From assembly GCA_963205115.1 (NCBI GenBank), contig CAUJHV010000045.1, positions 72,259 through 136,258 on the forward strand: a stretch of DNA of 64,000 nucleotides. The letters run 5' to 3'. The translations under genes were made by a program, and so were the position numbers. The stretch's first letter is position 1. The number at the start of each line of letters is the position of its first letter. Positions 46,479 to 58,205 of this stretch are shown here, in pieces. The notes under the pieces are model-generated. The model saw nothing but the letters and a program-made list of their open reading frames with translations, made no database searches and had not been told where the DNA came from. The stretch comes from Pseudomonadota bacterium (GTDB taxonomy: Bacteria > Pseudomonadota > Gammaproteobacteria > Burkholderiales > Burkholderiaceae_C).

Positions 46479-48197
46479 ATGCACACGACACCGACGGCCC
46501 CGCGACTGGCCGGCCACGCCCTCGTCGAGGCCCTGATCGCCCAGGGTGTCGACACCTGCTTCGGCGTGCCGGGCGAGAGCTTTCTGGCCGTGCTGGATGG
46601 CTTCCACGAATACCGCGAGCAGATCCGCTTCATCGCGGCCCGCCAGGATGGCGGCGCGGCTTTCATGGCCGAGGCGCAAGGCAAGCTCGATGGCCGTCCG
46701 GGCATCTGCTTCGTCACACGCGGGCCGGGCGCGGCGAATGCCAGCATCGGCATCCACAACGCCTTCCAGGACTCCACGCCGATGATCGTCTTCATCGGCC
46801 AGGTGGCCAGCGACCAGCGCGACCGCGAGGCCTTCCAGGAGGTCGACTACCGCCAGATGCTGGGCCCGGGCACGCTGGGGATGGCCAAGTGGGTGGCCGA
46901 GGTCGAGCGCGCCGACCGCCTGCCGGAATATGTGGCCCGCGCCTTCCACACGGCCATGCAGGGCCGCCCGGGGCCCGTTGTGCTGGTGCTGCCCGAGGAC
47001 ATGCTGACCACGCCGATCACCACGCCGGTGCTGCCGCGCGTGAAGCCCGCGCAGGCCTGGCCCGCGCCCGGCGCCCTGCGCGATCTGCGTGCGCTGCTGA
47101 TGCAGGCGAAGCAGCCCTTCGTGATCGCCGGCGGCAGCGGCTGGACGGGCGAATCGGTCGCCGCGCTGCAGCGTTTCGCCGAGAACTGGCACCTGCCGGT
47201 GGGCTGCGGTTTCCGCTTCCAGGACACCTTCGACAACCGCCACCCGCTGTATGCGGGCGACGTGGGCATCGGCATCAATCCCAAGCTGGCGCAGCGCATC
47301 CGCGACGCCGACCTGGTGCTGGCCATCGGCGTGCGCCTGGGCGAGATGACGACCTCGGGCTACACGCTGCTGGAGCCGCCGCGCCCGCGCCAGACGCTGG
47401 TGCACCTGCACGCCGGCGCCGAGGAACTGGGCCGCGTCTATGCGGCCGACCTGCTGCTGCAATGTTCGCTGGCCGGCGCCGGCAAGGCCCTGGAGACCCT
47501 GGCCGCACCGCCGCAAGTGCCCTGGGGCGAATGGGCCGATGCCGCGAATGCGGATTACCGCGCCAACCAGGTGGCCCCGGTGGTGGAACCGCTGGACATG
47601 GCCGAGGTCATGAAGACCGTGCAGCGCCTGTCTCCCGACGACACGATCTACGCCAACGGCGCCGGCAATTTCAGCGGCTGGCTGCACCGCTACGTGGCCT
47701 ATCCCGGTCTGCAGCACCACGGCCGCACGCAACTGGCCTGCACCTCGGGTGCGATGGGCTACGGCGTGCCGGCAGCCGTGGCCGCGGCGCTGCTGCAACC
47801 CACGCGCACGGTGATCAACGTGGCCGGTGACGGCGACTTCCTGATGACGGGCCAGGAGCTCGCCACGGCCAAGGCCTATGGCGCGCAGCGGCTGATCGTC
47901 ATCGTCGTCGACAACGGCACCTACGGCACCATCCGCATGCACCAGGAGCGCGAGTTTCCCGGGCGTGTCAGCGGCAGTGACCTGGCCAACCCGGACTTCG
48001 CCGCGCTGGCGCGTGCCTACGGCTGGGGCGCGTCACACGTGGCGCGCACGGCCGATTTCGAACCCGCCTTCCGTGCCGCGCTCGACAGCGGCCAGCCGCA
48101 CCTCATCCACCTGACGCTGGACACCGACGTCATCACGTCCCGCACGACGCTGGGCGCGATCCGCGCGGCGGCGCTGCAGCGCCAGGCACGAACCTGA
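46479..48197 (+). CDS. Thiamine-diphosphate-dependent enzyme (acetolactate synthase-like)
   Basis: FGVPGES, TRGPG, GAMGYG, GDGDFLM...NG.YGTIR ThDP motif. Confidence 0.9.
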   Translation: MHTTPTAPRLAGHALVEALIAQGVDTCFGVPGESFLAVLDGFHEYREQIRFIAARQDGGAAFMAEAQGKLDGRPGICFVTRGPGAANASIGIHNAFQDSTPMIVFIGQVASDQRDREAFQEVDYRQMLGPGTLGMAKWVAEVERADRLPEYVARAFHTAMQGRPGPVVLVLPEDMLTTPITTPVLPRVKPAQAWPAPGALRDLRALLMQAKQPFVIAGGSGWTGESVAALQRFAENWHLPVGCGFRFQDTFDNRHPLYAGDVGIGINPKLAQRIRDADLVLAIGVRLGEMTTSGYTLLEPPRPRQTLVHLHAGAEELGRVYAADLLLQCSLAGAGKALETLAAPPQVPWGEWADAANADYRANQVAPVVEPLDMAEVMKTVQRLSPDDTIYANGAGNFSGWLHRYVAYPGLQHHGRTQLACTSGAMGYGVPAAVAAALLQPTRTVINVAGDGDFLMTGQELATAKAYGAQRLIVIVVDNGTYGTIRMHQEREFPGRVSGSDLANPDFAALARAYGWGASHVARTADFEPAFRAALDSGQPHLIHLTLDTDVITSRTTLGAIRAAALQRQART

Positions 48198-48222
48198 ATC
48201 CTCCATCGACACCCGACACATC

Positions 48223-48723
48223 ATGTCCGACAAACTTCCCGCCACCTGTGACCTCTGCGACCAGCACAAAGCCGACCGCAGCGGCCGATTCCGCGTGTTG
48301 CCGCCCGCCTTCAAGGCCTACGGCGGCCGCGGGCACTTCGGCGGCCCGGTGGTCACCGTCAAGTGCTTCGAGGACAACACCGTCGTGAAGGCGGCGCTGG
48401 AGTCCGCCGGCGAAGGCCGCGTGCTCGTGGTCGACGGTGGCGGCTCGCTGCGCCGGGCGCTGGTGGGCGGCAATATCGCGGCCGCGGCGGCGCGCAACGG
48501 CTGGGCCGGCGTGGTCATCGACGGCTGCGTCCGCGACCTGGCGGAGCTGAATGCCTGCGACGTGGGCATCCGCGCGCTGGGCCTGATGCCGCTGCCCACC
48601 GAACGCCGCGGCGAAGGCCAGCGCGACCTGCCGGTGCAGATCCAGGGCGTCACCGTGTCGCCCGGTGACTGGCTCTATGCCGACGACGACGGCATCGTCG
48701 TGATGCCCGAACGCGCGAGCTGA
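48223..48723 (+). CDS. rraA: RraA family protein (RNase E regulator / HMG-aldolase-like)
   Basis: TCDLCD, VKCFEDN, VDGGGS, GCVRD, ADDDG. Confidence 0.88.
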   Translation: MSDKLPATCDLCDQHKADRSGRFRVLPPAFKAYGGRGHFGGPVVTVKCFEDNTVVKAALESAGEGRVLVVDGGGSLRRALVGGNIAAAAARNGWAGVVIDGCVRDLAELNACDVGIRALGLMPLPTERRGEGQRDLPVQIQGVTVSPGDWLYADDDGIVVMPERAS

Positions 48724-48778
48724 GCGGCGGCACGCGACGCATCGCACCTGGCCCGCGCCCACGCACCCTTCATCCGAC

Positions 48779-49312
48779 ATGCCTTCGAGTCGCCAACCTG
48801 CCCGCGAACTGTCCACCTGGACGGTGGTGCCCACCGGTGCGCAGGCCCAGGGCGTCGCGCGGCAGTGCCGGCGGCTGGTCACCAAGCGTGCGCTGCTGGC
48901 CGCGGGGGTGGCGATGGTGCCGATCCCGGGGCTGGACTGGCTCACCGACGTGGGCGTGCTGCTGAAGGTGCTGCCGGAGATCAACCAGGCTTTCGGGCTG
49001 ACACCCGAGCAGGTGGAGCGGCTGGCGCCCGAACGCCGCATCGTCGTCTACAAGGCGCTGAGCGCCGCCGGCGGCATGCTGGTGGGCCGCGTCATCACGC
49101 AGCAGCTGGTGCTGTCGGTGCTCAAGACAGTCGGCATCCGGCTGACGACGCAACAGGCGGCCAAGTTTGTGCCCGTGGCCGGGCAGGCGGTATCTGCCGC
49201 GCTGACCTTCAGTGCGCTGAAGTACGTCTGCGACCTGCACATCCGGCAGTGCGTGGCCATCTGCGAGCAGCTGGATCTGCCGCCCTCGCGGCCGGCCGAC
49301 GTGGTGGGCTGA
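48779..49312 (+). CDS. Conserved hypothetical protein (DUF697/EcsC-like helical)
   Basis: VPIPGLD..D motif, KFVPVAGQAVSA; host-like codon usage. Confidence 0.65.
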   Translation: MPSSRQPARELSTWTVVPTGAQAQGVARQCRRLVTKRALLAAGVAMVPIPGLDWLTDVGVLLKVLPEINQAFGLTPEQVERLAPERRIVVYKALSAAGGMLVGRVITQQLVLSVLKTVGIRLTTQQAAKFVPVAGQAVSAALTFSALKYVCDLHIRQCVAICEQLDLPPSRPADVVG

Positions 49313-49595
49313 CGCCCGGCCTATTGGGCTGGCAGGGCGCGTTCCGGGTTTGACGCCGGCCGCCCGCCGCGCTCAGCCGCGCGCGGCGACCACGCCGGCG
49401 GCGTCGCATCTGCGCGCCGGGGGTGCCAGGCCCACGCTGGCCAGCAGGTCCCAGACGGCCGCTTGCAGTTGCGCTGCCCGCAACAGCTCGCCGAGTACCG
49501 CGCGCATCTCGTCCTGTCCGGGGTCAGAAATCCTCCATCCGCCAGGACGCAGCCTCACTAAAATATCTCAAACTACCCATTCCGGATTCACGACG

Positions 49596-50249
49596 ATGTC
49601 TCGCTCCATTAGACCGGCGACGCCGGAAGATGCCCCGTTTCTGGCTGAAATGATTCAGGAATCAACGATGCCGATCGTGGGCCGCGGCTTGTTCGACGAA
49701 ATCCTGGAGGATCTCGAAGTCGAACCGCTCACGTTCATTCAGGCCATGCTGTTGACTGGCGCGAGTAATTGGGGCCAGATCGAAAGCTTCCTGATGGTGG
49801 AGGAGGACGGCGAGCCGGCTGGTGCTTGCGCTGCCTTCTTGTCGTCCAACCCGGACTGCCGACCGATCACGCCGCAAGGGCTGGGTTTGGTGACATCACG
49901 CTTGGCGTGGTCCCAAGACCGAAGTCGAAACTTCTGGAAAAAATACGTGTCCCGGTACGGGATGTTTGGCGATCTGCCGCACTTGCGCCACCCTGCACCG
50001 TATGTTCTCGAATATACAGGCGTCAAATCCGAAAAGCGAGGGCAAGGCCTGCTCCATCTGCTGCTCGACGCTCATGCCCGTCGAGCGCGCGAAGCCGGCC
50101 ACCGAGCCATGGCAGTATCTGCGGTCATCGGGAATGAGAGCGCCTTGCGGGGCTATACCAAATTTGGCTTCAGATTTGTTTCCCAATTGGGCCCCGAAAA
50201 GTTCGGGAACAAGCATCCGGGAATGAACCGGTTGATCATGGACTTGTGA
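49596..50249 (+). CDS. GNAT family N-acetyltransferase
   Basis: IRPATPEDA, V.SEKRGQGL motif A, NESALRGYTKFGF. Confidence 0.85.
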   Translation: MSRSIRPATPEDAPFLAEMIQESTMPIVGRGLFDEILEDLEVEPLTFIQAMLLTGASNWGQIESFLMVEEDGEPAGACAAFLSSNPDCRPITPQGLGLVTSRLAWSQDRSRNFWKKYVSRYGMFGDLPHLRHPAPYVLEYTGVKSEKRGQGLLHLLLDAHARRAREAGHRAMAVSAVIGNESALRGYTKFGFRFVSQLGPEKFGNKHPGMNRLIMDL

Positions 50250-50255
50250 ATCGGG

Positions 50256-51419
50256 TCACAGCACCTCGTCCACATAGCGCTCGATCTTGGAGTTCCGCAG
50301 TGTCAGACGCAGGTTCGATACCATCAACGGTGCGCTGAGCGCGTCCCTTACCAATTCGGACAGACTATAAGAACCGTCGAGGGCGTAGCCGCGCATCCCG
50401 ATCAAATCCAGCGCGCCGCGCACAATATCGTTGAGCAGGTCGGCACCAACCACCTTCAGTCGGGCACTGCGCGCCGAAAAGCTCATTCCCTTGACGATAT
50501 CCTGCGAGCGACCCAACTTCTGATACTCGTTGATCGAATCCCGGATGATCGCATTCATCACGTAGTGCTTGTCGATCAACGCACTCATCCTGAATGCGAC
50601 TATGGACGTGGCATCTGATTTTCCTTCTTTGGCCACAGCTCGTTTCAGTCTATCGATAGCCTGCCACGCGATGCCACTCCAAACCGTGGCCCAAAGAATA
50701 TTTACCACGGGAGTCATCGTATCGCGCTGTATCTTGACAAATCCTTCCGAAAAGATTGCCTCAGGATCACAGCGTACGTTCAATTCATAGGCTCTGTTGA
50801 CAATGCCGCGCAAGCCGGTGAGCTGCATCTCAGGGCCCTGCGTAAACTCGATATCCTTGGATTCCGCGGCGATCAGCACCTGCTTCGGCTTGCCTCCCGA
50901 TCGCTTGTCCATCGCGGTAATCAGCACGGCACCGCACAGTTCAAAATAGGAAATTATTGGACAGTCTTTTTTCAGGAGTATCCTTCCGTCTGCGCTCGGA
51001 GCGATTTCGCAAACTGATCCAAATATGTCGCCACCCACACCCTTTTCAGACGTCGCGCTACCGATGAGCAGCTGATCGCGCACCATGCGCTTTTGCAAAT
51101 CATCGAAGAAGGCGGATTGATTGTCATGCTGGACGATGCAATACGCCTGCGACATGTGCATGGCGTAGATGAGTGCGGCTGAAGCGGACACCCTGGCGAT
51201 ATTGAAGTTGATCTTGGCAATCGAATGAAGATCCAAACCGGGACCACCCATCGACGGCGGAACCACGACTGACATCAATCCTTCATTGCGAATGGCATCG
51301 AGAACAGCGTTCGTATAGGGTTTCTCGTTCCCCGAAACGTTCTCCACACTGATAAGTTTGCCCAGATTTCTGGAGGCCTCAATAAACTTTTCGAAAGATG
51401 GGTTCGCGTCAGGTTTCAT
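50256..51419 (-). CDS. Acyl-CoA dehydrogenase-like flavoprotein (likely acting on acyl-ACP)
   Basis: VPPSMGGPG, ASAALIYAMH, SATSE, GLRG, IGMRGY, VRDALSAPLMVSN. Confidence 0.82.
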   Translation of the reverse strand: MKPDANPSFEKFIEASRNLGKLISVENVSGNEKPYTNAVLDAIRNEGLMSVVVPPSMGGPGLDLHSIAKINFNIARVSASAALIYAMHMSQAYCIVQHDNQSAFFDDLQKRMVRDQLLIGSATSEKGVGGDIFGSVCEIAPSADGRILLKKDCPIISYFELCGAVLITAMDKRSGGKPKQVLIAAESKDIEFTQGPEMQLTGLRGIVNRAYELNVRCDPEAIFSEGFVKIQRDTMTPVVNILWATVWSGIAWQAIDRLKRAVAKEGKSDATSIVAFRMSALIDKHYVMNAIIRDSINEYQKLGRSQDIVKGMSFSARSARLKVVGADLLNDIVRGALDLIGMRGYALDGSYSLSELVRDALSAPLMVSNLRLTLRNSKIERYVDEVL

Positions 51420-51433
51420 TTCCAACTCCCTTA

Positions 51434-52660
51434 TCAGATGCCAAAGGCGAGCGCCATCAAGCGGAATGAGTCGCCGAGACCTGAAACGCCACTGAAGGCA
51501 ACCAGGCTGCCGCCCAGGAACACATAGCCCATGGTGAGGGCCCAACCGACAACTCGACCGGCAGCGGTGCGGAAGAATCGAATCTTGGCCTTCTGTGCGA
51601 ACCGCCCCCAGAGGACGCACCCGGCTTGGCCGAGGCCATGCCAGAGTCCCCACGCCAGCCAATGCAGATTCGCGGCGTGCCACAACCCAACCAAGACGAA
51701 TGTGAGCACCACTGACATATACGGATTGCGCGTGATGCCGATCAGTGGCATGTAAACATAAGCCCGGCACCAATTGGTCAATGACATATGCCAGCGACGC
51801 CAAAAGTCCAGGATGTTCGTGGCCAACAGCGGGTAATCGAAGTTCTCTCCGATTCTGATCCCGAACAGCAGCATCGCCCCGATAGCCATATCAGAATAGG
51901 CAGAGAACTCCAAGTAGGTGCTCAGAGTTGTCAGCGCCAGATAGCTCCATACCGCCAACGCACTGGCAGGTTCTGCCGAACCGTTGACGTAGGCAACCAA
52001 ATCCGGTCCTGTGAAGCCCAATGCGGCCGCGTTGAGCTTTTCAACCAGAACCAGTTTCTTGATCAAGCCTTGTACGATGCGCGTCAAACCTTCCACGACG
52101 TCGCTGATCGCGAACGTTTGTGAACGCTTGGCCAAATAGTGGTCAAGACGCTCGATAGGTCCCGCTGTAAAGGTCGGGAACAAGAACAGCCACGACATGA
52201 AATCCAGGAAACTGTGCTCAGGCAGCGCCGCACGACCGCGTTCGAGTGCGTAGTGCATCAGCTTGAAACTGTAGTAGCTGATGCCGAGTGGGACGACGTA
52301 CGCGCGGGGATCCCCCGCCCCATAACGACTCGTAAAGATGGCGGGAGCGTACTTGAACCATATCAAGTAGCACAGGACCATAAGAAAAAACCAGGTGTAC
52401 CTGCGCGCGCGGGCCACCGGCTTTGGCAACCATGCAACGACGCCGCCTAGCCAACGCATCCGCCCTTCCGTCAGGGGTGAACAGCCAATATATACGGCAA
52501 CCGCCAAAGCGATCATCATGCCCAGGGCCTGAGCAGCTTCAACCAGCAGAATCGCAATGCTGACCAGGGCGAGAATATTCGGTCGCCATTTCGGGCGAGA
52601 TGCCCAGTAGATAGGTGGAAGCGCCAGAACGAAAATCCACCAGTTGACTGAATCTATTAT
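51434..52660 (-). CDS. MBOAT family O-acyltransferase (DltB/AlgI-like)
   Basis: PLGISYYSF, FPTFTAGPIER, FSAYSDMAIG, ENFDYP, FWRRWHMSL, GLWH (catalytic His); frame open to ATA at 52660, first ATG at 52519. Confidence 0.92.
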   Translation of the reverse strand: MIDSVNWWIFVLALPPIYWASRPKWRPNILALVSIAILLVEAAQALGMMIALAVAVYIGCSPLTEGRMRWLGGVVAWLPKPVARARRYTWFFLMVLCYLIWFKYAPAIFTSRYGAGDPRAYVVPLGISYYSFKLMHYALERGRAALPEHSFLDFMSWLFLFPTFTAGPIERLDHYLAKRSQTFAISDVVEGLTRIVQGLIKKLVLVEKLNAAALGFTGPDLVAYVNGSAEPASALAVWSYLALTTLSTYLEFSAYSDMAIGAMLLFGIRIGENFDYPLLATNILDFWRRWHMSLTNWCRAYVYMPLIGITRNPYMSVVLTFVLVGLWHAANLHWLAWGLWHGLGQAGCVLWGRFAQKAKIRFFRTAAGRVVGWALTMGYVFLGGSLVAFSGVSGLGDSFRLMALAFGI

Positions 52661-52835
52661 GATTACACCATCAAGTCAGAATAGGCGATGCGTGCGCCGA
52701 GCGACCCCATTAGTCGGTTCCGCTGCAAAGAAGCAGTCGCTTTTAATATGAAATGGACGCACCCGCCGAATAATCATCGTCAACTGAGTCGCACCCTTTC
52801 TTTTGGTGCCATTCGATGTATTCCTGTAGATCGAA

Positions 52836-52997
52836 TCAGAAGCCTTGGTAGATGAATGTCACGGGGCCACTTTCGAGCGTATTGAATCTGAGGCCTGCCA
52901 TAGCCAGCAGAACGCCAAGGACGACGCCTTGAGCGACCTGTCCAAGGCGCCATAGCCAACCTCTTGCAGGTTTCGCAGTTTTATGAGACCGAGTCAC
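52836..52997 (-). CDS. DltX-like small membrane protein (53 aa) ending FIYQGF
   Basis: GTG start with GGAAAGG upstream, overlaps the SGNH gene end; one hydrophobic helix; aromatic C-terminal hexapeptide with Tyr. Confidence 0.75.
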   Translation of the reverse strand: MTRSHKTAKPARGWLWRLGQVAQGVVLGVLLAMAGLRFNTLESGPVTFIYQGF

Positions 52998-54111
52998 GAA
53001 CGACCTTTCCAACTTCCAATTGCCTGACACACTCCGCCAGCTTCCTTCGGGCCAGGCCTTGCGCTCCAGCGTCATTCAAATGAGCATGATCTGGATAAAA
53101 GCCTTCATCAGATGTGCCCGGAATATCAAGCTCACAGTAGGGACTGCCGAACGCTTTCGCGAGGCTGGCGACCCTCTTCTTATAGTTTACATATGATTCT
53201 CGATCTGATCGGCTCTCGAGTAAACTATCGCTGATCGGTGTTTCCACGAACATGACCACATTCCCGCGCGCCTTCAAGTTGCGCACGGTGTGTTCGAGTA
53301 ATGCTTCAGCAAACCGATCCTCCGCCGTGCCTTCGCGCAGAATCTTCAACCATACGTCTCGCTTCACTTTGCGCCTCGCGGGAGTAGCGGTAAAGTCCGA
53401 TAGATAGATGTCGTACTTTTGGTCGGTCTGATGACCTAGAAGTAGTCGTTGAAATATACCCGACCATGGTCGATTGGAGAGGAATAATCGGTTGTCCCAG
53501 GCAAAAATGCCTGTCAGTGAATCCGGCTCTCCACATATAGGAGCCTTCAAGCTGGCGGACCACTCGGAATGAATTCCCAGGCGGCGCAAATTGCACCATC
53601 TCACATACTCGCTACGGGGATGCCCGAACCGCGCAAACCCTACGGAAAGAACGACGATGCCGGGGTCTCGTGCCGTTGCGTGTTCCGCCAGCGCAGCCTC
53701 ATCGTAGGGACCCTGCGCCGGCGTGGTGAAGAGATCCACACGCCAGTCGAGTTGAGTGACTTCTCTCAATGACTGCGCAAGCGCGCTTTCACTCACGAAC
53801 GTGTGCGCCATGATGGAATTTCCAATGGCGTACATTTTCGGCGATTCGCTCGGCGTTCTGGTTCCCGTTGAAATCTGCAAGGCCTTGCGCGTAGCGAACA
53901 TCTCTTGATCCCAGAGGGGACCTGGCAAATAAGCGCCGAGTGGGCCCGCAATGAACGACGGGGTCAAGACGACCAGTATCAATCCGACACTGAAGCCAGA
54001 AACGAGAAATGCCAGCGACAGTGAGAATATGGAAGGTGAAGTAAAACCACTCCAAAATGTCCGCCACGCTGCGAGACCAGTGTCGAGAAGACCTGCCAAT
54101 TTGAGTCGCAT
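52981..54111 (-). CDS. SGNH/DltD-like membrane-anchored acyltransferase
   Basis: N-terminal TM anchor, block I AIGNS, C-terminal DHAHLN (DxxH). Confidence 0.72.
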   Translation of the reverse strand: MRLKLAGLLDTGLAAWRTFWSGFTSPSIFSLSLAFLVSGFSVGLILVVLTPSFIAGPLGAYLPGPLWDQEMFATRKALQISTGTRTPSESPKMYAIGNSIMAHTFVSESALAQSLREVTQLDWRVDLFTTPAQGPYDEAALAEHATARDPGIVVLSVGFARFGHPRSEYVRWCNLRRLGIHSEWSASLKAPICGEPDSLTGIFAWDNRLFLSNRPWSGIFQRLLLGHQTDQKYDIYLSDFTATPARRKVKRDVWLKILREGTAEDRFAEALLEHTVRNLKARGNVVMFVETPISDSLLESRSDRESYVNYKKRVASLAKAFGSPYCELDIPGTSDEGFYPDHAHLNDAGAQGLARRKLAECVRQLEVGKVVRDSVS

Positions 54112-54130
54112 CTAACCAGATATATTCAGA

Positions 54131-55660
54131 TTACTTGAACAGGGTCTTGACGGCACGGTAGTCAGGCTTTCCATTCGGCGTCAAGGGAATCGCATCGATA
54201 ACGATATAAAGACGCGGTTGCATGAAGTTCGACATGCAATCACGCGCATATGCTTTGAGCGTGCCCACCGCAGACTTGCTGTCGGATCCCTCCTTCAGGA
54301 CTACCGCTGCAGCCACCATTTCGCCGATGATTTCATGATCCACCCCTACGATGGCGACGTCCTGGACAATCTTGTTGCCTCGGATCACGGCCTCAATTTC
54401 ATCGGGACTCACTCGAACACCCATCGACTTGATCAGCCGATCACGGCGCCCCTTGATATAGAGCAATCCTTGTTCGTCCTTCCATCCCATGTCACCAGAG
54501 AATACAACCAGCGGCGCACTGACGCCCTCGTGGCGCCACAACGGATCGGGGCGCAGAACCGCGGCCGTCGATACGGGGTCTGCCCAATAGCCTAGAAAAA
54601 CTCCCGTGCCGCGATGAACGATCTCTCCCAATTGCCCCGGCGGAGCCTCTTCGCCGTCGGGCCCCAGCACACTGATACTGACGCCCGGATACGCGAAACC
54701 TACAGATTCGGGGAATTTGCTCGCCAGGTGGGTTGGCAATCCAGCCCCACGGTACGTCTCCGTCATGCCGTAATTCAGCGATATTTCACAGTGTCCGAAG
54801 AGCTGGAGCAATTCCTGAAAAATCGCGGGTGATATTTTTCCCCCTGTATTCGTGACCAAGCGCAGCGAGCTGAGATCCGTGGTTCTGATGGGCGACAGCC
54901 CACGAATCAGCAATGCAAATATGGACGGCAGTCCCGCAAACACAGTCGGTCGGTGACGATCGATGGCTTCGCAAAGTGAAAACGGATTGCGGGCAACCGG
55001 AAGCACCTGGGTCAAACCCAGGAGGATGGTCGAAAGAAACTGGCCATAGCCATAGTCGAAGGACCACGGGATGGGGCACAGGATCCGATCGGTCTTCCGC
55101 AATTCCAGGGCCTCGGCAACCATCCGGCACCCGCGGACCAGATTGGAATGCGATTGAACGACTCCCTTGGGCATCCCGGTCGAACCGGAGGTAAAGAAAA
55201 TGGAGGCCGGCTCATTGTCATGGATGACATTTCGCGGGGCGTCCGTATCGATCGGGAGCGCTTTCCAGTCTGGCAGTTCGATGACCGGCGGCCCTTCGCA
55301 CTGACAGGCCCGCTGGAAGTTCTGCGACTCGACAATGGCCAGTGACGGCTTGATCAATCGGATCGCATGCTCGAAGTGTGTGGCCGGGGCTTCGTCATTG
55401 ACCAGGGCAACGATGGCGCCGATTTGCCAGCAAGCCAGCATGGCAGCGGCCGCTTCCGCCGAATTGCCGACCCAGAGCAAGCAGCGATCGCCTGGGCCCA
55501 ATCCCGACGTCGCCAATTGCCCGGCGGCGCGCAGCGCCAAGGTGTGCAGCTGACGAAAGGTGATGGCGCGCTCGCCGCAGACGATCGCGTCGCGTTCTGG
55601 CGCCTCGCGCACGACCGCCGCAAAACCGCGCCATAGCGCGCCACCGAGTTCGCGCGTCAC
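54131..55660 (-). CDS. Adenylate-forming ligase (DltA-like / exosortase-associated acyl-ligase type)
   Basis: FTSGSTGMPKG, SFDYG, NYGMTE, SGD, GRRD..IKSMG.RVSP, PNGK; GTGA overlap with upstream gene. Confidence 0.9.
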   Translation of the reverse strand: MTRELGGALWRGFAAVVREAPERDAIVCGERAITFRQLHTLALRAAGQLATSGLGPGDRCLLWVGNSAEAAAAMLACWQIGAIVALVNDEAPATHFEHAIRLIKPSLAIVESQNFQRACQCEGPPVIELPDWKALPIDTDAPRNVIHDNEPASIFFTSGSTGMPKGVVQSHSNLVRGCRMVAEALELRKTDRILCPIPWSFDYGYGQFLSTILLGLTQVLPVARNPFSLCEAIDRHRPTVFAGLPSIFALLIRGLSPIRTTDLSSLRLVTNTGGKISPAIFQELLQLFGHCEISLNYGMTETYRGAGLPTHLASKFPESVGFAYPGVSISVLGPDGEEAPPGQLGEIVHRGTGVFLGYWADPVSTAAVLRPDPLWRHEGVSAPLVVFSGDMGWKDEQGLLYIKGRRDRLIKSMGVRVSPDEIEAVIRGNKIVQDVAIVGVDHEIIGEMVAAAVVLKEGSDSKSAVGTLKAYARDCMSNFMQPRLYIVIDAIPLTPNGKPDYRAVKTLFK

Positions 55661-56961
55661 GTTTGCGACCCATTTTCGGCTGCGGCACGATGCCGCCCCA
55701 AGGTCTCCCAATGGTTCAGCCTGCTTTCGGTTGCATCGACTTGGCTGTCCCCATCCAAGAGTACCTCGGCCGGCTCCGGATGACTGATGAACCGCGTCGG
55801 ACTTGCCGTAATTCCGTATGCACCGGAACCTCCGACCGCCAGCAGGTTGCCGACGTGGACTTCCGGTAGTTCGATGTTGGTTGCCAAAATGTCTATCGTC
55901 GTGCAAAGCGGGCCGACCAGCAGGTATTTCTGCTTGGCACCCAGAGGATTCGAGAGGTTTTGTATGTGCCAGTTTCGACGGATCACAGTGCCCATCATGC
56001 CGCAGGCAGCCAGGTGATTGTTGAAGCCGGCATCGCACGCGCGTATCTGAACGCCGCGACTCTCCTTTGCGGCGACCACGCTGGTCACCAGCCACCCGGC
56101 GGGGCCGACAATCCAGCGCCCCATCTCGAGTATGCAGTTGGCATCGGCAAACCGTGGTTCGGACCTGAGCGAATCGACTGCCGGCATGATCCGTTCCGCC
56201 AGAGCATTCATATCTAACGGTGACTCACCATCCATGTATGGAATACCGAAACCAGAACCAAATATGAGTTTCTTGGGGTGAATATCGGCTCGATCGGAAG
56301 CCCTTTTGAACAGATCGATGAATATATTGAAGTTTTCAGCGATCGCATCGACATTCAAACTGTTTGTGCCGGAATAGATGTGGAACCCGATCAATTCGAG
56401 TCCCGGCAAGGCCCGGATGATGTCGATGGCTTCGCCGCACACCTCTTCGTCGATGCCAAATTGGCTTGGCTTTCCCGCCATATTCACGCCAAAGTGCCGC
56501 GGCACTCTGACCGGATTGAGCCGGATCAGAACGTTCTGCGTGACCCCCAACTCTTGCGCGACCGCACTCGCCAACCTCGCTTCTGGAACTGATTCGAGCA
56601 CCAGTTCTCCGAGGCCGCAGGCAATGGCGCCGCGAATCTCTGAAACTCTCTTGGCAGGACCAGAAAATGTTAAGTTTCGAGGATCGAAGCCGGCCTTCAG
56701 GCCTCTTTCGACCTCGCCGAACGACGAGACATCGAGGGTTGTGACCAGTGGATTCAACGCTCTCAGGAGCTCGATATTCGGATTCGACTTGGCCGCGAAG
56801 CTGACGCCGAAGTTTCTGCCGAACAGACGGGTCAGTGTCCCGAATCTCTCGCGAATGATGTCCAGATCATAGACATAGGCGGGCGTGCCTACGGATTCCG
56901 CAGCCCTTCTGATGCGATTCATGCCGATTTGTGGATGATCGCCTTTCGTATCCGAATCCAT
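55657..56961 (-). CDS. Fold-type III PLP-dependent decarboxylase (LysA/BtrK-like)
   Basis: TPAYVYD, FAAKSNP (PLP Lys), SQFG, HIYSG, GSGFG, EMGRW, GPLCTTID, GAYG. Confidence 0.9.
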   Translation of the reverse strand: MDSDTKGDHPQIGMNRIRRAAESVGTPAYVYDLDIIRERFGTLTRLFGRNFGVSFAAKSNPNIELLRALNPLVTTLDVSSFGEVERGLKAGFDPRNLTFSGPAKRVSEIRGAIACGLGELVLESVPEARLASAVAQELGVTQNVLIRLNPVRVPRHFGVNMAGKPSQFGIDEEVCGEAIDIIRALPGLELIGFHIYSGTNSLNVDAIAENFNIFIDLFKRASDRADIHPKKLIFGSGFGIPYMDGESPLDMNALAERIMPAVDSLRSEPRFADANCILEMGRWIVGPAGWLVTSVVAAKESRGVQIRACDAGFNNHLAACGMMGTVIRRNWHIQNLSNPLGAKQKYLLVGPLCTTIDILATNIELPEVHVGNLLAVGGSGAYGITASPTRFISHPEPAEVLLDGDSQVDATESRLNHWETLGRHRAAAENGSQT

Positions 56962-56967
56962 AGAGGG

Positions 56968-57210
56968 TCAAACAGGGACCATTGCCACATATCGAAGAAT
57001 TCTCGACATGCTGTCAAAGTTGTCCAGATTGACATCGGACGGCGAGATGGTGATGTCGGCCTCTGATTCGATGAAAGTCATCAGAGAAACCAGCGCAAAG
57101 CTGTCCACAATACCGCCGCTGAAAAGTGGCGTATCCTCGGTTATGTCGACAACGTCGACACCCAGTTCGTCTTCGAGAAACTGTTTCAATTGATCAAGCG
57201 AAAGCGGCAT
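56968..57210 (-). CDS. Acyl/aminoacyl carrier protein (DltC-like)
   Basis: 80 aa acidic protein with GIVDSF phosphopantetheine Ser and NFDS end. Confidence 0.9.
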   Translation of the reverse strand: MPLSLDQLKQFLEDELGVDVVDITEDTPLFSGGIVDSFALVSLMTFIESEADITISPSDVNLDNFDSMSRILRYVAMVPV

Positions 57211-57266
57211 AACACATCCAATACGAATAAATTGATTAAAGTCGGCAAAGATCAGTGATTCATTTG

Positions 57267-57291
57267 GAAACAATCAGAAAGATCTTGTTTC
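57267..57291. promoter_or_regulatory. Inverted repeat upstream of the ACP operon (candidate operator)
   Basis: GAAACAA-N11-TTGTTTC in the AT-rich region upstream of the ACP gene. Confidence 0.35.
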
Positions 57292-57948
57292 AAAGTCGGG
57301 GCCTGGTTGCCCGCTGAGCAGCTATGGCAACAGCGCTCAAGCCACGCCCCCCCAGCGCGAGAGAACCCCCGAAAAGATGGTGAATCTCGAGCATTTGTTC
57401 ACGCCGGGGCGAGCATAAACAGCCTGGGGGGCTACCCCTGCCCTTGAACATGGGATTTGTACCCCCGAGCTTCGGGGTAGCTTTGGGGCCCGGACATATC
57501 CGAACCCGAAGGCAATGACCCGCTTGTTTCACCGCGGTTGAGTTTTGCGGTTTCGGTGAGTTCTTTGCGGTGTTCCGGCGGTTTGCGAAGTCAGGTTCAT
57601 CACCCCGAGGCGCGGGATGTGGCCCTGGCTGTCCGACTCCAGCCGCGCGTTCACGGGCCGCTCGTGCGGCCAACGCTGCGCGGCGTAGCTGAACACGACT
57701 ACCAGCCGCTGCGGTGTGCCCCTGCGCTTACACTGCGCGTGAAATGTCCATGGTGATGCGCTGCCAGCCACCGGTGACGCGCCCAGCCGCGACACCAGGT
57801 TCCAAACATGGTGTCCAGGCACGGATGGCTGTCAACCGGCCCTGGGGCGCAGCCCCTGTCGGGCACCCGACGCAGCCTCTGGGCGCCGCTACGAGGTCAC
57901 GCCTGGCCGCTGGGCTCGGTCGTTTCGGGGCCTCACAGGCCCGGCGGC

Positions 57949-57967: not shown

Positions 57968-58044
57968 CGGGGTGTAGCGCAGCCTGGTAGCGCAACTGCT
58001 TTGGGAGCAGTGGGTCGGATGTTCGAATCATCTCACCCCGACCA
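57968..58044 (+). tRNA. tRNA-Pro (TGG)
   Basis: CGGGGTG...CACCCCG acceptor stem, CTGCT-TTTGGGA-AGCAG-type anticodon arm with TGG, GTTCGAATC T-loop, CCA end. Confidence 0.96.
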
Positions 58045-58128
58045 CCTCACACGATCGATCGGCCGTCCATCGCCGCGCGATCACGGCCCGCGACGCGCGG
58101 CCGGCACCGAACGGGCGCCGCGCCCGAT

Positions 58129-58205
58129 CTGCCCGTAGCTCAACTGGATAGAGCAGCTGCCTTCTAAGCAGCAGGTCGGGGGTTCGAGTCCCTCCGGGCA
58201 GGCCA
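58129..58205 (+). tRNA. tRNA-Arg (TCT)
   Basis: CTGCCCG...CGGGCAG stem, anticodon loop CTTCTAA, GGTTCGAGTCC, CCA end. Confidence 0.96.

Follow-up and report, generated by a model that had tools for sequence, protein, structure and literature searches.

A carrier-protein tailoring module joined to a predicted Dlt-like membrane relay on a low-GC island of a Burkholderiales genome

We analysed a 64,000-nucleotide stretch of contig CAUJHV010000045.1 (assembly GCA_963205115.1, a bacterium of the Burkholderiales; hereafter the window). Positions 49,596 to 57,210 hold an eight-gene cassette that joins an amino-acid-loading carrier module to membrane proteins resembling the Dlt system, the D-alanine relay of Gram-positive walls. 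The sequence data suggest that an Asp-derived acyl group is capped and oxidised on an acyl carrier protein (ACP) and passed by a Dlt-type relay to what is likely a surface glycan. We give this reading as a whole a probability of roughly 0.5. An earlier note, made from the sequence alone, had proposed a Dlt-like relay fed by a Btr-like (butirosin-type) assembly line.

In the proposed order of events, a host phosphopantetheinyl transferase (PPTase) would prime Ser37 of the ACP. The ligase would adenylate the side-chain carboxyl of Asp, with Asp202 holding the alpha-amine and Thr272 and Arg304 the alpha-carboxylate (roles assigned by analogy with VinN and AfcQ), and a pyridoxal phosphate (PLP)-dependent decarboxylase would strip the alpha-carboxyl to leave beta-alanyl-ACP. 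The amine released in this way would be acetylated by the GNAT acetyltransferase, whose slot is taken in relatives by either a sulfotransferase or an adenylation enzyme of the Gly/Ala type. A flavoprotein of the acyl-CoA dehydrogenase (ACAD) fold would oxidise the capped group, our first choice being desaturation to 3-acetamidoacryloyl. The acyl group would leave its thioester link to the ACP when the MBOAT protein transfers it to Tyr50 of a microprotein, and Ser99 of the SGNH protein would accept it from Tyr50 and esterify it onto an envelope glycan.

We located all eight open reading frames (ORFs) as described in the earlier note. Seven lie on the minus strand (57210 to 50256) in the order ACP, decarboxylase, ligase, SGNH, microprotein, MBOAT and ACAD-fold flavoprotein, and the GNAT gene converges on them from the plus strand (49596-50249; Table 1). 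Junctions along the minus-strand run measured +6, −4, +19, −17, +175 and +14 nt. The tight spacing claimed for the run thus holds for most junctions and fails at the 175-nt gap between the microprotein and MBOAT genes. The convergent ACAD and GNAT stops are separated by 6 nt.

Table 1. Features of the cassette, in window coordinates
Feature	Position	Strand	Domains and residues
ACP	56968..57210	-	80 aa; PF00550; Ser37 in DSF
Fold-type III PLP decarboxylase, BtrK-like	55657..56961	-	PF02784+PF00278; Lys58 in AKSN, Cys353 in GPLCT
Stand-alone adenylation enzyme (ligase), VinN/AfcQ type	54131..55660	-	PF00501; SFDYG at 200-204; Asp202, Thr272, Arg304, Lys498
Membrane-anchored SGNH, DltD-like	52981..54111	-	weak PF13472; hydrophobic helix 31-49; Ser99, Asp341, His344 (D341-x-x-H344)
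Microprotein, predicted DltX-like shuttle	52836..52997	-	GTG start, 53 aa, C-terminal FIYQGF, Tyr50
MBOAT, DltB-like	51434..52660	-	PF03062; 408 aa with probable ATA start; His328 in GLWH
ACAD-fold flavoprotein	50256..51419	-	weak acyl-CoA dehydrogenase domains (Pfam)
GNAT acetyltransferase	49596..50249	+	PF00583
Low-GC island with cassette	49500..57300	.	GC content

The membrane proteins very probably work as in Dlt, judging from fold and conserved residues, though no part reaches a Dlt family cut-off. In the Dlt order, the acyl group passes from the carrier to DltB, the DltX tyrosine, the DltD serine and then the polymer (PMC12148441). For the SGNH protein, an AlphaFold model (pLDDT 83) had DltD as its top match by both Foldseek (E 1e-5) and VIA-align (Z 13.5, rmsd 4.8, 264 aligned). 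Generic SGNH enzymes came within 1 Z of the DltD match, yet aligned over only ~180 residues. Of 149 aligned homologues, 138 span both sites, and 133 of these keep Ser99, Asp341 and His344 together. This SGNH family is large and unnamed, with 264 clusters at E<=1e-30 and 827 at 1e-3 by profile search; a word-indexed homologue search returned one near-identical copy and nothing else, and the profile gave no significant PDB sequence match.

The microprotein has a single hydrophobic helix (residues 18-36) and matched no Pfam or NCBIfam model. We observed that F48, Y50, Q51, G52 and F53 of its F-x-Y-Q-G-F end were invariant in 11/11 aligned sequences. The sole NCBIfam match of the MBOAT was DltB (TIGR04091; 149 bits, cut-off 375). 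His328 of its GLWH motif, which we take to be the equivalent of DltB His336, was also invariant in 11/11. The MBOAT ends in ALAFGI and has no fused Tyr motif; longer MBOATs with a fused motif were seen in loci L106, L116 and L133-135. The DltD fold match, the unfused DltB-like MBOAT and the invariant tyrosine agree with the relay proposed in the earlier note.

The cargo of this relay most likely derives from the adjoining carrier module. The ACP matched PF00550 (E 6e-8), stayed below cut-off on the DltC models (38 of 68 and 27 of 52 bits) and was 45-58% identical to the ACPs of 11 related cassettes. Three PPTase genes are present in the host genome. The top PDB match of the decarboxylase was BtrK (E 1e-63), with the next groups at 1e-39; the enzyme scored 333 bits on TIGR03099 (cut-off 478) and 240 bits on LysA (cut-off 298). 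The first-ranked NCBIfam match of the ligase was TIGR03098 (346 bits, cut-off 592), and PRK04813, the DltA-family D-Ala ligase model, came at rank 23 (149 bits, cut-off 476). The likeness to the exosortase-A-associated TIGR03098/TIGR03099 pair, drawn in the earlier note, stands insofar as these are the best NCBIfam matches of the two enzymes, but both scores are below cut-off. The cassette further differs from that pair in its separate ligase clade and decarboxylase-ligase order, and no exosortase or PEP-CTERM genes were seen on the island.

The best stand-alone PDB matches of the ligase profile were 3wvn and 3wv4, which we take to be VinN. Asp202, Thr272, Arg304 and Lys498 were invariant in 16/16 subfamily ligases, and the first three align with those of an AfcQ at an overall identity of 32%. 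VinN binds via Asp230 and Ser299/Arg331 (PMC7756342), and the equivalence of the cassette residues was read through the alignment to AfcQ. Related modules have been described for Asp. The proposed BolO/BolC/BolN route leads from Asp to beta-alanyl-ACP, with the likewise BtrK-like BolN proposed to act on Asp, and deletion of bolQ causes beta-Ala to replace dehydro-beta-Ala (PMC7756342). AfcQ activates L-Asp in vitro, AfcP decarboxylates Asp on AfcK, and the same work argues that the enamine would be unstable if left uncapped (PMC12186527). Once the carrier-bound species is decarboxylated, VinM attaches Ala to its free amine (PMC11284099). We lean towards Asp rather than Glu as the substrate of the cassette ligase.

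We scanned GTDB genomes with the ACAD as anchor (47 loci) and metagenomes with the ligase as anchor (best 80 of 424 loci). The genes co-occur beyond the window, as the proposal in the earlier note would have it: all seven co-oriented genes were found together in 10 of the 47 genome loci (L002, 003, 005, 006, 009, 010, 011, 014, 018, 029) and in one of the best 80 metagenome loci (L066). Every complete genome locus with a class on record was alphaproteobacterial. The gene order of the window was kept in 8/10 complete genome loci, save one inserted gene, and the relay block had moved in 2. In L018 the ACAD gene is broken into two ORFs, and several of the 47 loci are truncated or hold the ACAD alone. 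Among the best 80 metagenome loci, 18 belonged to this ligase subfamily, two of them with six genes (L053, L058). Pairwise over 12 complete cassettes, ligase identities correlated with those of the MBOAT (Spearman 0.85) and the SGNH protein (0.87), as shared host ancestry would also bring about. More distant ACAD loci (27-33% identity) were mostly of another cluster type, 19 with an amino acid:carrier-protein ligase and 19 with DUF1839. Cultured carriers include Octadecabacter algicola and Pseudorhodobacter aquimaris, with the relay, and Asticcacaulis taihuensis and Phenylobacterium deserti, without it.

One position of the cassette varied among relatives. A sulfotransferase (PF13469) occupied it in 17 related loci (12 genome, 5 metagenome), mostly between decarboxylase and ligase; one of the five metagenome copies is partial and lies beside a CysN-like gene. 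The GNAT subfamily was found directly upstream of the ACP in five loci (L019, L055, L056, L057, L059), and three cores without a slot gene (L008, L013, L015) have a GNAT homologue elsewhere in the genome; the homologues of both groups are 42-51% identical. In two loci (L002, L053) a second amino-acid adenylation enzyme follows the MBOAT. No locus carried two slot enzymes, and ten loci, mostly truncated, showed none. The GNAT was not found in 11/11 sulfotransferase-bearing genomes nor in the L002 genome. The sulfotransferase profile gave partial matches of <=44 bits in five genomes without a sulfotransferase at the locus and none in the genome of the window. The closest solved relatives of the sulfotransferase were 4gox and the CurM sulfotransferase (CurM ST), which act on ACP-bound substrates and O-sulfate hydroxyacyl-ACP. 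The best stand-alone matches of the second ligase were 4oxi, 8k4r and 6akd, presumably AlmE, VinM and IdnL7. Because all three slot chemistries can cap an amine, the GNAT probably acts on the carrier-bound product, at its free amine.

Several observations weigh against the reading proposed above. GNAT and sulfotransferase sort by ligase clade, and their mutual exclusion may represent one or two events; many of the compared genomes are incomplete, which affects the exclusivity counts. AfcP scored just 56 bits on the cassette decarboxylase profile, the cassette enzyme being far closer to the Glu-type BtrK. In a quick tree with SH-aLRT support (40 rows hand-chosen from 150 loci), the ligase formed its own clade, apart from the AfcQ and TIGR03098 types. 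An SMb20650-like ligase without an adjacent decarboxylase keeps the same Asp, Thr and Arg, so the substrate cannot be read from them. A malonate precedent for SMb20650 was not confirmed; the available part of PMC7232532 says only that SMb20650 acylates its ACP.

The BtrK match, the low AfcP score and the separate ligase clade would all suit an L-Glu cargo on the same relay. Gamma-glutamyl-ACP would then be converted to gamma-aminobutyryl-ACP, capped, and hydroxylated or desaturated into a decoration resembling the 4-amino-2-hydroxybutyrate (AHBA) of butirosin; capping would also prevent lactam formation. We consider an L-Glu cargo unlikely. BolN is BtrK-like and is proposed for Asp, the cassette ligase retains the Arg that picks Asp-type substrates in VinN and AfcQ, VinN entries are its best stand-alone structural relatives, and no BtrJ- or BtrO-type gene is present. 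BtrJ is an ATP-grasp ligase and BtrO a non-ACAD flavoprotein hydroxylase, whereas the cassette ligase belongs to the AMP-binding family and the flavoprotein has the ACAD fold. Of the Btr-like assembly line in the earlier note, the decarboxylase is upheld; the ligase is of the VinN/AfcQ type and not BtrJ-like, and the flavoprotein does not have the fold of BtrO.

Further points against the Asp-based reading concern the flavoprotein. Its model (pLDDT 93.7) has the ACAD fold (Z 36.6-39.1, rmsd ~3, ~365 aligned), and the protein is the sister group to the ACAD of amino acid:carrier-protein-ligase clusters; an Atlas look-up returned generic ACAD clusters only. Neither canonical catalytic Glu is present: position 367 was V/I and position 239 was I/V/T/S (240 was H/N/Q) in 57/57 sequences. 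The two Glu sites (MCAD E376 and IVD E254, which we take to be the reference numbering of these residues) were mapped from RDA and helix-G anchors. Dehydrogenases and monooxygenases tied by VIA-align. We rejected the flavoprotein as an AfcE orthologue, the ACAD profile giving no match at E 1e-3 in the afc locus L049. In L053, where the relay occurs together with a second ligase, no ACAD was seen within 3.7 kb, and the flavoprotein may therefore be optional.

The missing Glu would also fit an oxygenase that attacks N or C of the free omega-aminoacyl-ACP. Before the relay exports the product, the slot enzyme would then cap the new oxygen or hydroxylamine, giving a hydroxamate here and, in relatives, a sulfate ester. 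Consistent with this, Met366 aligns with a Met of the N-oxygenase KijD3, Foldseek placed TdsC/DszC first (TM 0.80-0.81), and the sulfotransferase is closest to enzymes that sulfate oxygen. Such an oxygenase route appears less likely still than an L-Glu cargo. Butyryl-CoA dehydrogenases came first in the profile search, position 366 is not the His that DszC-type oxygenases use, no flavin reductase was seen in any cassette, and the VinM-like second ligase fits N-capping better. For the flavoprotein step taken by itself, we tentatively place alpha,beta-desaturation first, at less than even odds, followed by oxygenation, with some other oxidation a doubtful third.

The remaining counter-evidence concerns delivery. 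Four of the best 80 metagenome loci carry GNAT-ACP-decarboxylase-ligase-ACAD without the relay, and six genome loci (L007, 008, 012, 013, 015, 019) keep the carrier core without it. The SGNH profile found nothing in the five relay-less core genomes searched. Because cores persist without the relay and the SGNH protein was not found in those five genomes, the carrier core does not need the relay. No polysaccharide gene family recurred beside complete cassettes among length-chosen ORFs within ~3 kb. Lastly, the conserved N-terminus of the MBOAT contains no ATG, GTG or TTG. Homologous MBOATs start M/V-I-x-x-x-x-W-W where the window reads I-I-D-S-V-N-W-W, and a start at the first ATG (52519) would remove ~47 residues, including invariant positions. 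Since the homologue-aligned N-terminus offers no ATG, GTG or TTG, the start is probably ATA at 52660 or 52657. A sequencing error there is unlikely, the contigs of three other studies showing no other letter at these codons. An out-of-frame ATG-GTG-TAA mini-ORF lies directly upstream of the MBOAT (52655-52672) in the window and in strain variants.

The ten loci with a core but no nearby relay would be expected if the carrier module, working with some other transferase, produced a small molecule or the head group of a lipid, with the relay modifying lipid or protein rather than glycan, or decaying. Five of these cores lie beside a tandem alpha/beta-hydrolase (TIGR03100/03101-like in the one tested), possibly an alternative delivery route. 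The absence of conserved glycan genes nearby, the non-canonical MBOAT start and the 175-nt gap point the same way. We nevertheless consider this improbable. The catalytic residues of the relay are all intact in the window, and strain variation is denser in the spacer, with 10 variable positions in 52672-52774 compared to 3 in the first 47 codons of the MBOAT. In addition, two loci (L106:7917-15396 and L116:157-6997) carry a TIGR03098-type ligase and decarboxylase followed by a fused-motif MBOAT (ending FIYFQF) and an SGNH gene, and adjoin glycosyltransferase or O-antigen-ligase-like genes. More distant ligase-decarboxylase pairs sit among polysaccharide genes in L050 and L052. The contexts of these four loci indirectly favour a glycan acceptor.

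A chance assembly of a fatty acyl-CoA ligase, a free-amino-acid decarboxylase, a catabolic ACAD and an ordinary acetyl-CoA MBOAT/SGNH pair is very hard to credit: the ligase did match many acyl-CoA synthetase models and the decarboxylase LysA, all below cut-off, but co-occurrence is conserved in 11 other loci with correlated divergence, BtrK leads LysA by 24 orders of E-value, and the microprotein is free, whereas acetyl-CoA systems fuse the motif to the MBOAT (PMC12148441).

We also assessed the host and the origin of the island. The low GC (guanine plus cytosine) content reported earlier was confirmed, at 0.555 compared to 0.698 in the flanks; no more than 3 among 735 genome windows (7.8 kb each) had a GC of <=0.57. 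The host is Gram-negative and probably a member of the Burkholderiales, because its genome encodes LpxC and one island-flanking gene is 81% identical to a Vitreoscilla filiformis gene. The SGNH gene was not found in the 40 relatives searched (24 of the same genus), nor the ligase subfamily in 200 same-genus genomes. Ligase matches at E<=1e-100 turned up in six of those 200, each scoring 340-380 bits compared to 801 for the window ligase, which is the range of the more distant TIGR03098-type ligases. The block was likely imported, because the ligase subfamily was not found in these 200 genomes. In the ligase tree, the window ligase clustered with that of a Sphingomonadaceae metagenome-assembled genome and a near-identical metagenome copy (support 96), and the named members of the enclosing clade were Alphaproteobacteria (support 100). 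Import from an alphaproteobacterium would be the simplest reading of this tree. Near-identical contigs are present in wastewater and sludge studies apart from the possible source study. tRNA-Pro(TGG) and tRNA-Arg(TCT) lie at 57968-58205, 0.7-0.9 kb right of the island edge. We did not count them as evidence, because no integrase was found on the island and no repeat of either tRNA of >=11 nt within 47001-57900. A promoter and terminator scan gave fewer sites than in shuffles, and the MBOAT had no plasmid match at 1e-40.

Compared to known systems, the cassette resembles Dlt (DltA/C/B/X/D), which D-alanylates lipoteichoic acid, or LPS in Dickeya, in its adenylation enzyme, carrier, unfused MBOAT, free single-pass microprotein with a Tyr hexapeptide, and DltD-fold SGNH protein with the triad. 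It differs in that all parts are below the family cut-offs and the ligase is of the VinN/AfcQ type rather than DltA; it adds an on-carrier decarboxylase, a flavoprotein and a capping enzyme, in a host with LpxC. A Gram-negative host is not new by itself, because Dlt genes are also known in Dickeya and Pectobacterium (PMC5541007). PatAB, AlgIJ and WssHI share an MBOAT plus SGNH protein, an acyl-Tyr relay and a Gram-negative host with the cassette, but use an acetyl-CoA donor, lack a carrier and have an MBOAT with the Tyr motif built in (PMC12148441).

For the carrier module, comparison of the parts suggests that bolagladin, AFC-BC11 and vicenistatin are closer precedents than butirosin, with which the likeness is BtrK as the best solved relative of the decarboxylase. 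The dehydro-beta-alanine module of bolagladin (BolO/C/N/Q) and AFC-BC11 (AfcQ/K/P/E) likewise has a stand-alone ligase with the VinN-type Asp/Arg, an ACP, a PLP decarboxylase, N-acylation and an ACAD-like enzyme. Its product enters a lipopeptide, whereas the cassette has no nonribosomal peptide synthetase (NRPS), ketoacyl-ACP synthase III (KAS III) or fatty acyl-AMP ligase (FAAL), its flavoprotein is not an AfcE orthologue and its ligase is 32% identical to AfcQ. Vicenistatin (VinN/VinL/VinO/VinM) shares side-chain loading, on-carrier decarboxylation and amine capping, and a second ligase of VinM/AlmE-like type is present in two relatives, L002 and L053. The vicenistatin module feeds a polyketide synthase through VinK and has neither a membrane relay nor an ACAD.

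Both halves of the cassette are thus already known, the relay from Dlt and the carrier module from bolagladin, AFC-BC11 and vicenistatin; the hybrid is apparently new. Our literature searches, which left supplements outside their scope, found no description of this gene combination. Non-Dlt MBOAT/SGNH pathways are described as lacking both a carrier protein and a DltX-like microprotein (PMC12148441). Unlike them, the cassette has both in Gram-negative hosts, together with on-carrier tailoring of the natural-product kind. If the proposed reading is true, the D-alanine relay of Gram-positive walls extends to tailored cargo, with the Tyr shuttle moving bigger acyl groups that are tailored beforehand, and bacteria of wastewater, sea and soil bear a surface modification that has gone unseen. 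The cassette also offers a testable way into two groups that have long lacked an assignment: ligase-decarboxylase pairs of the TIGR03098/03099-like kind, and ACADs without the Glu from amino acid:carrier-protein-ligase clusters. More speculatively, the cassettes might form a widespread modular envelope-acylation family in which an oxidised, capped beta-alanine unit is built on an NRPS-style line and carried across the inner membrane by a DltX-type Tyr shuttle. The group might be 3-acetamidoacryloyl here, sulfated and anionic in most relatives, and aminoacylated in others. If so, the swap of one slot gene would switch a surface decoration between neutral, anionic and cationic.

Some loci from the scans carry further arrangements. 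An unassigned 311-aa protein accompanies both sulfotransferase cores that have no relay (L007:4895-5830, L012:14808-15743). In L064:3498-9446, a subfamily ACP, decarboxylase and ligase adjoin an MBOAT that is divergent and has a fused motif, along with pieces of a second ligase, and L065:295-7366 holds a subfamily ligase between three GH3-family genes, with no decarboxylase. One run in L125:3791-13157 encodes a methylaspartate mutase, a ligase, a decarboxylase, a sister ACAD and a luciferase-like monooxygenase, uniting vicenistatin-like and butirosin-like parts. In the public record of Burkholderia sp. FXe9, an interruption close to the 3' end breaks up afcQ (L049:15968-17541).

Two further observations come from the host genome. 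About 9-16 kb past the island and outside the window (G000:C45 ~138300-146000; L142:1593-9994), we observed a cluster of host-like GC with a PRK07081 ACP, a sister ACAD (30% identity), a fused TIGR03101/03100-like hydrolase, a GH2-like gene and a PPTase. This cluster is probably of the amino acid:carrier-protein-ligase type, and its PPTase could prime the island ACP. A second host MBOAT lies in a lower-GC stretch beside an AT3-type acyltransferase (L143:7630-11619; G000:C78).

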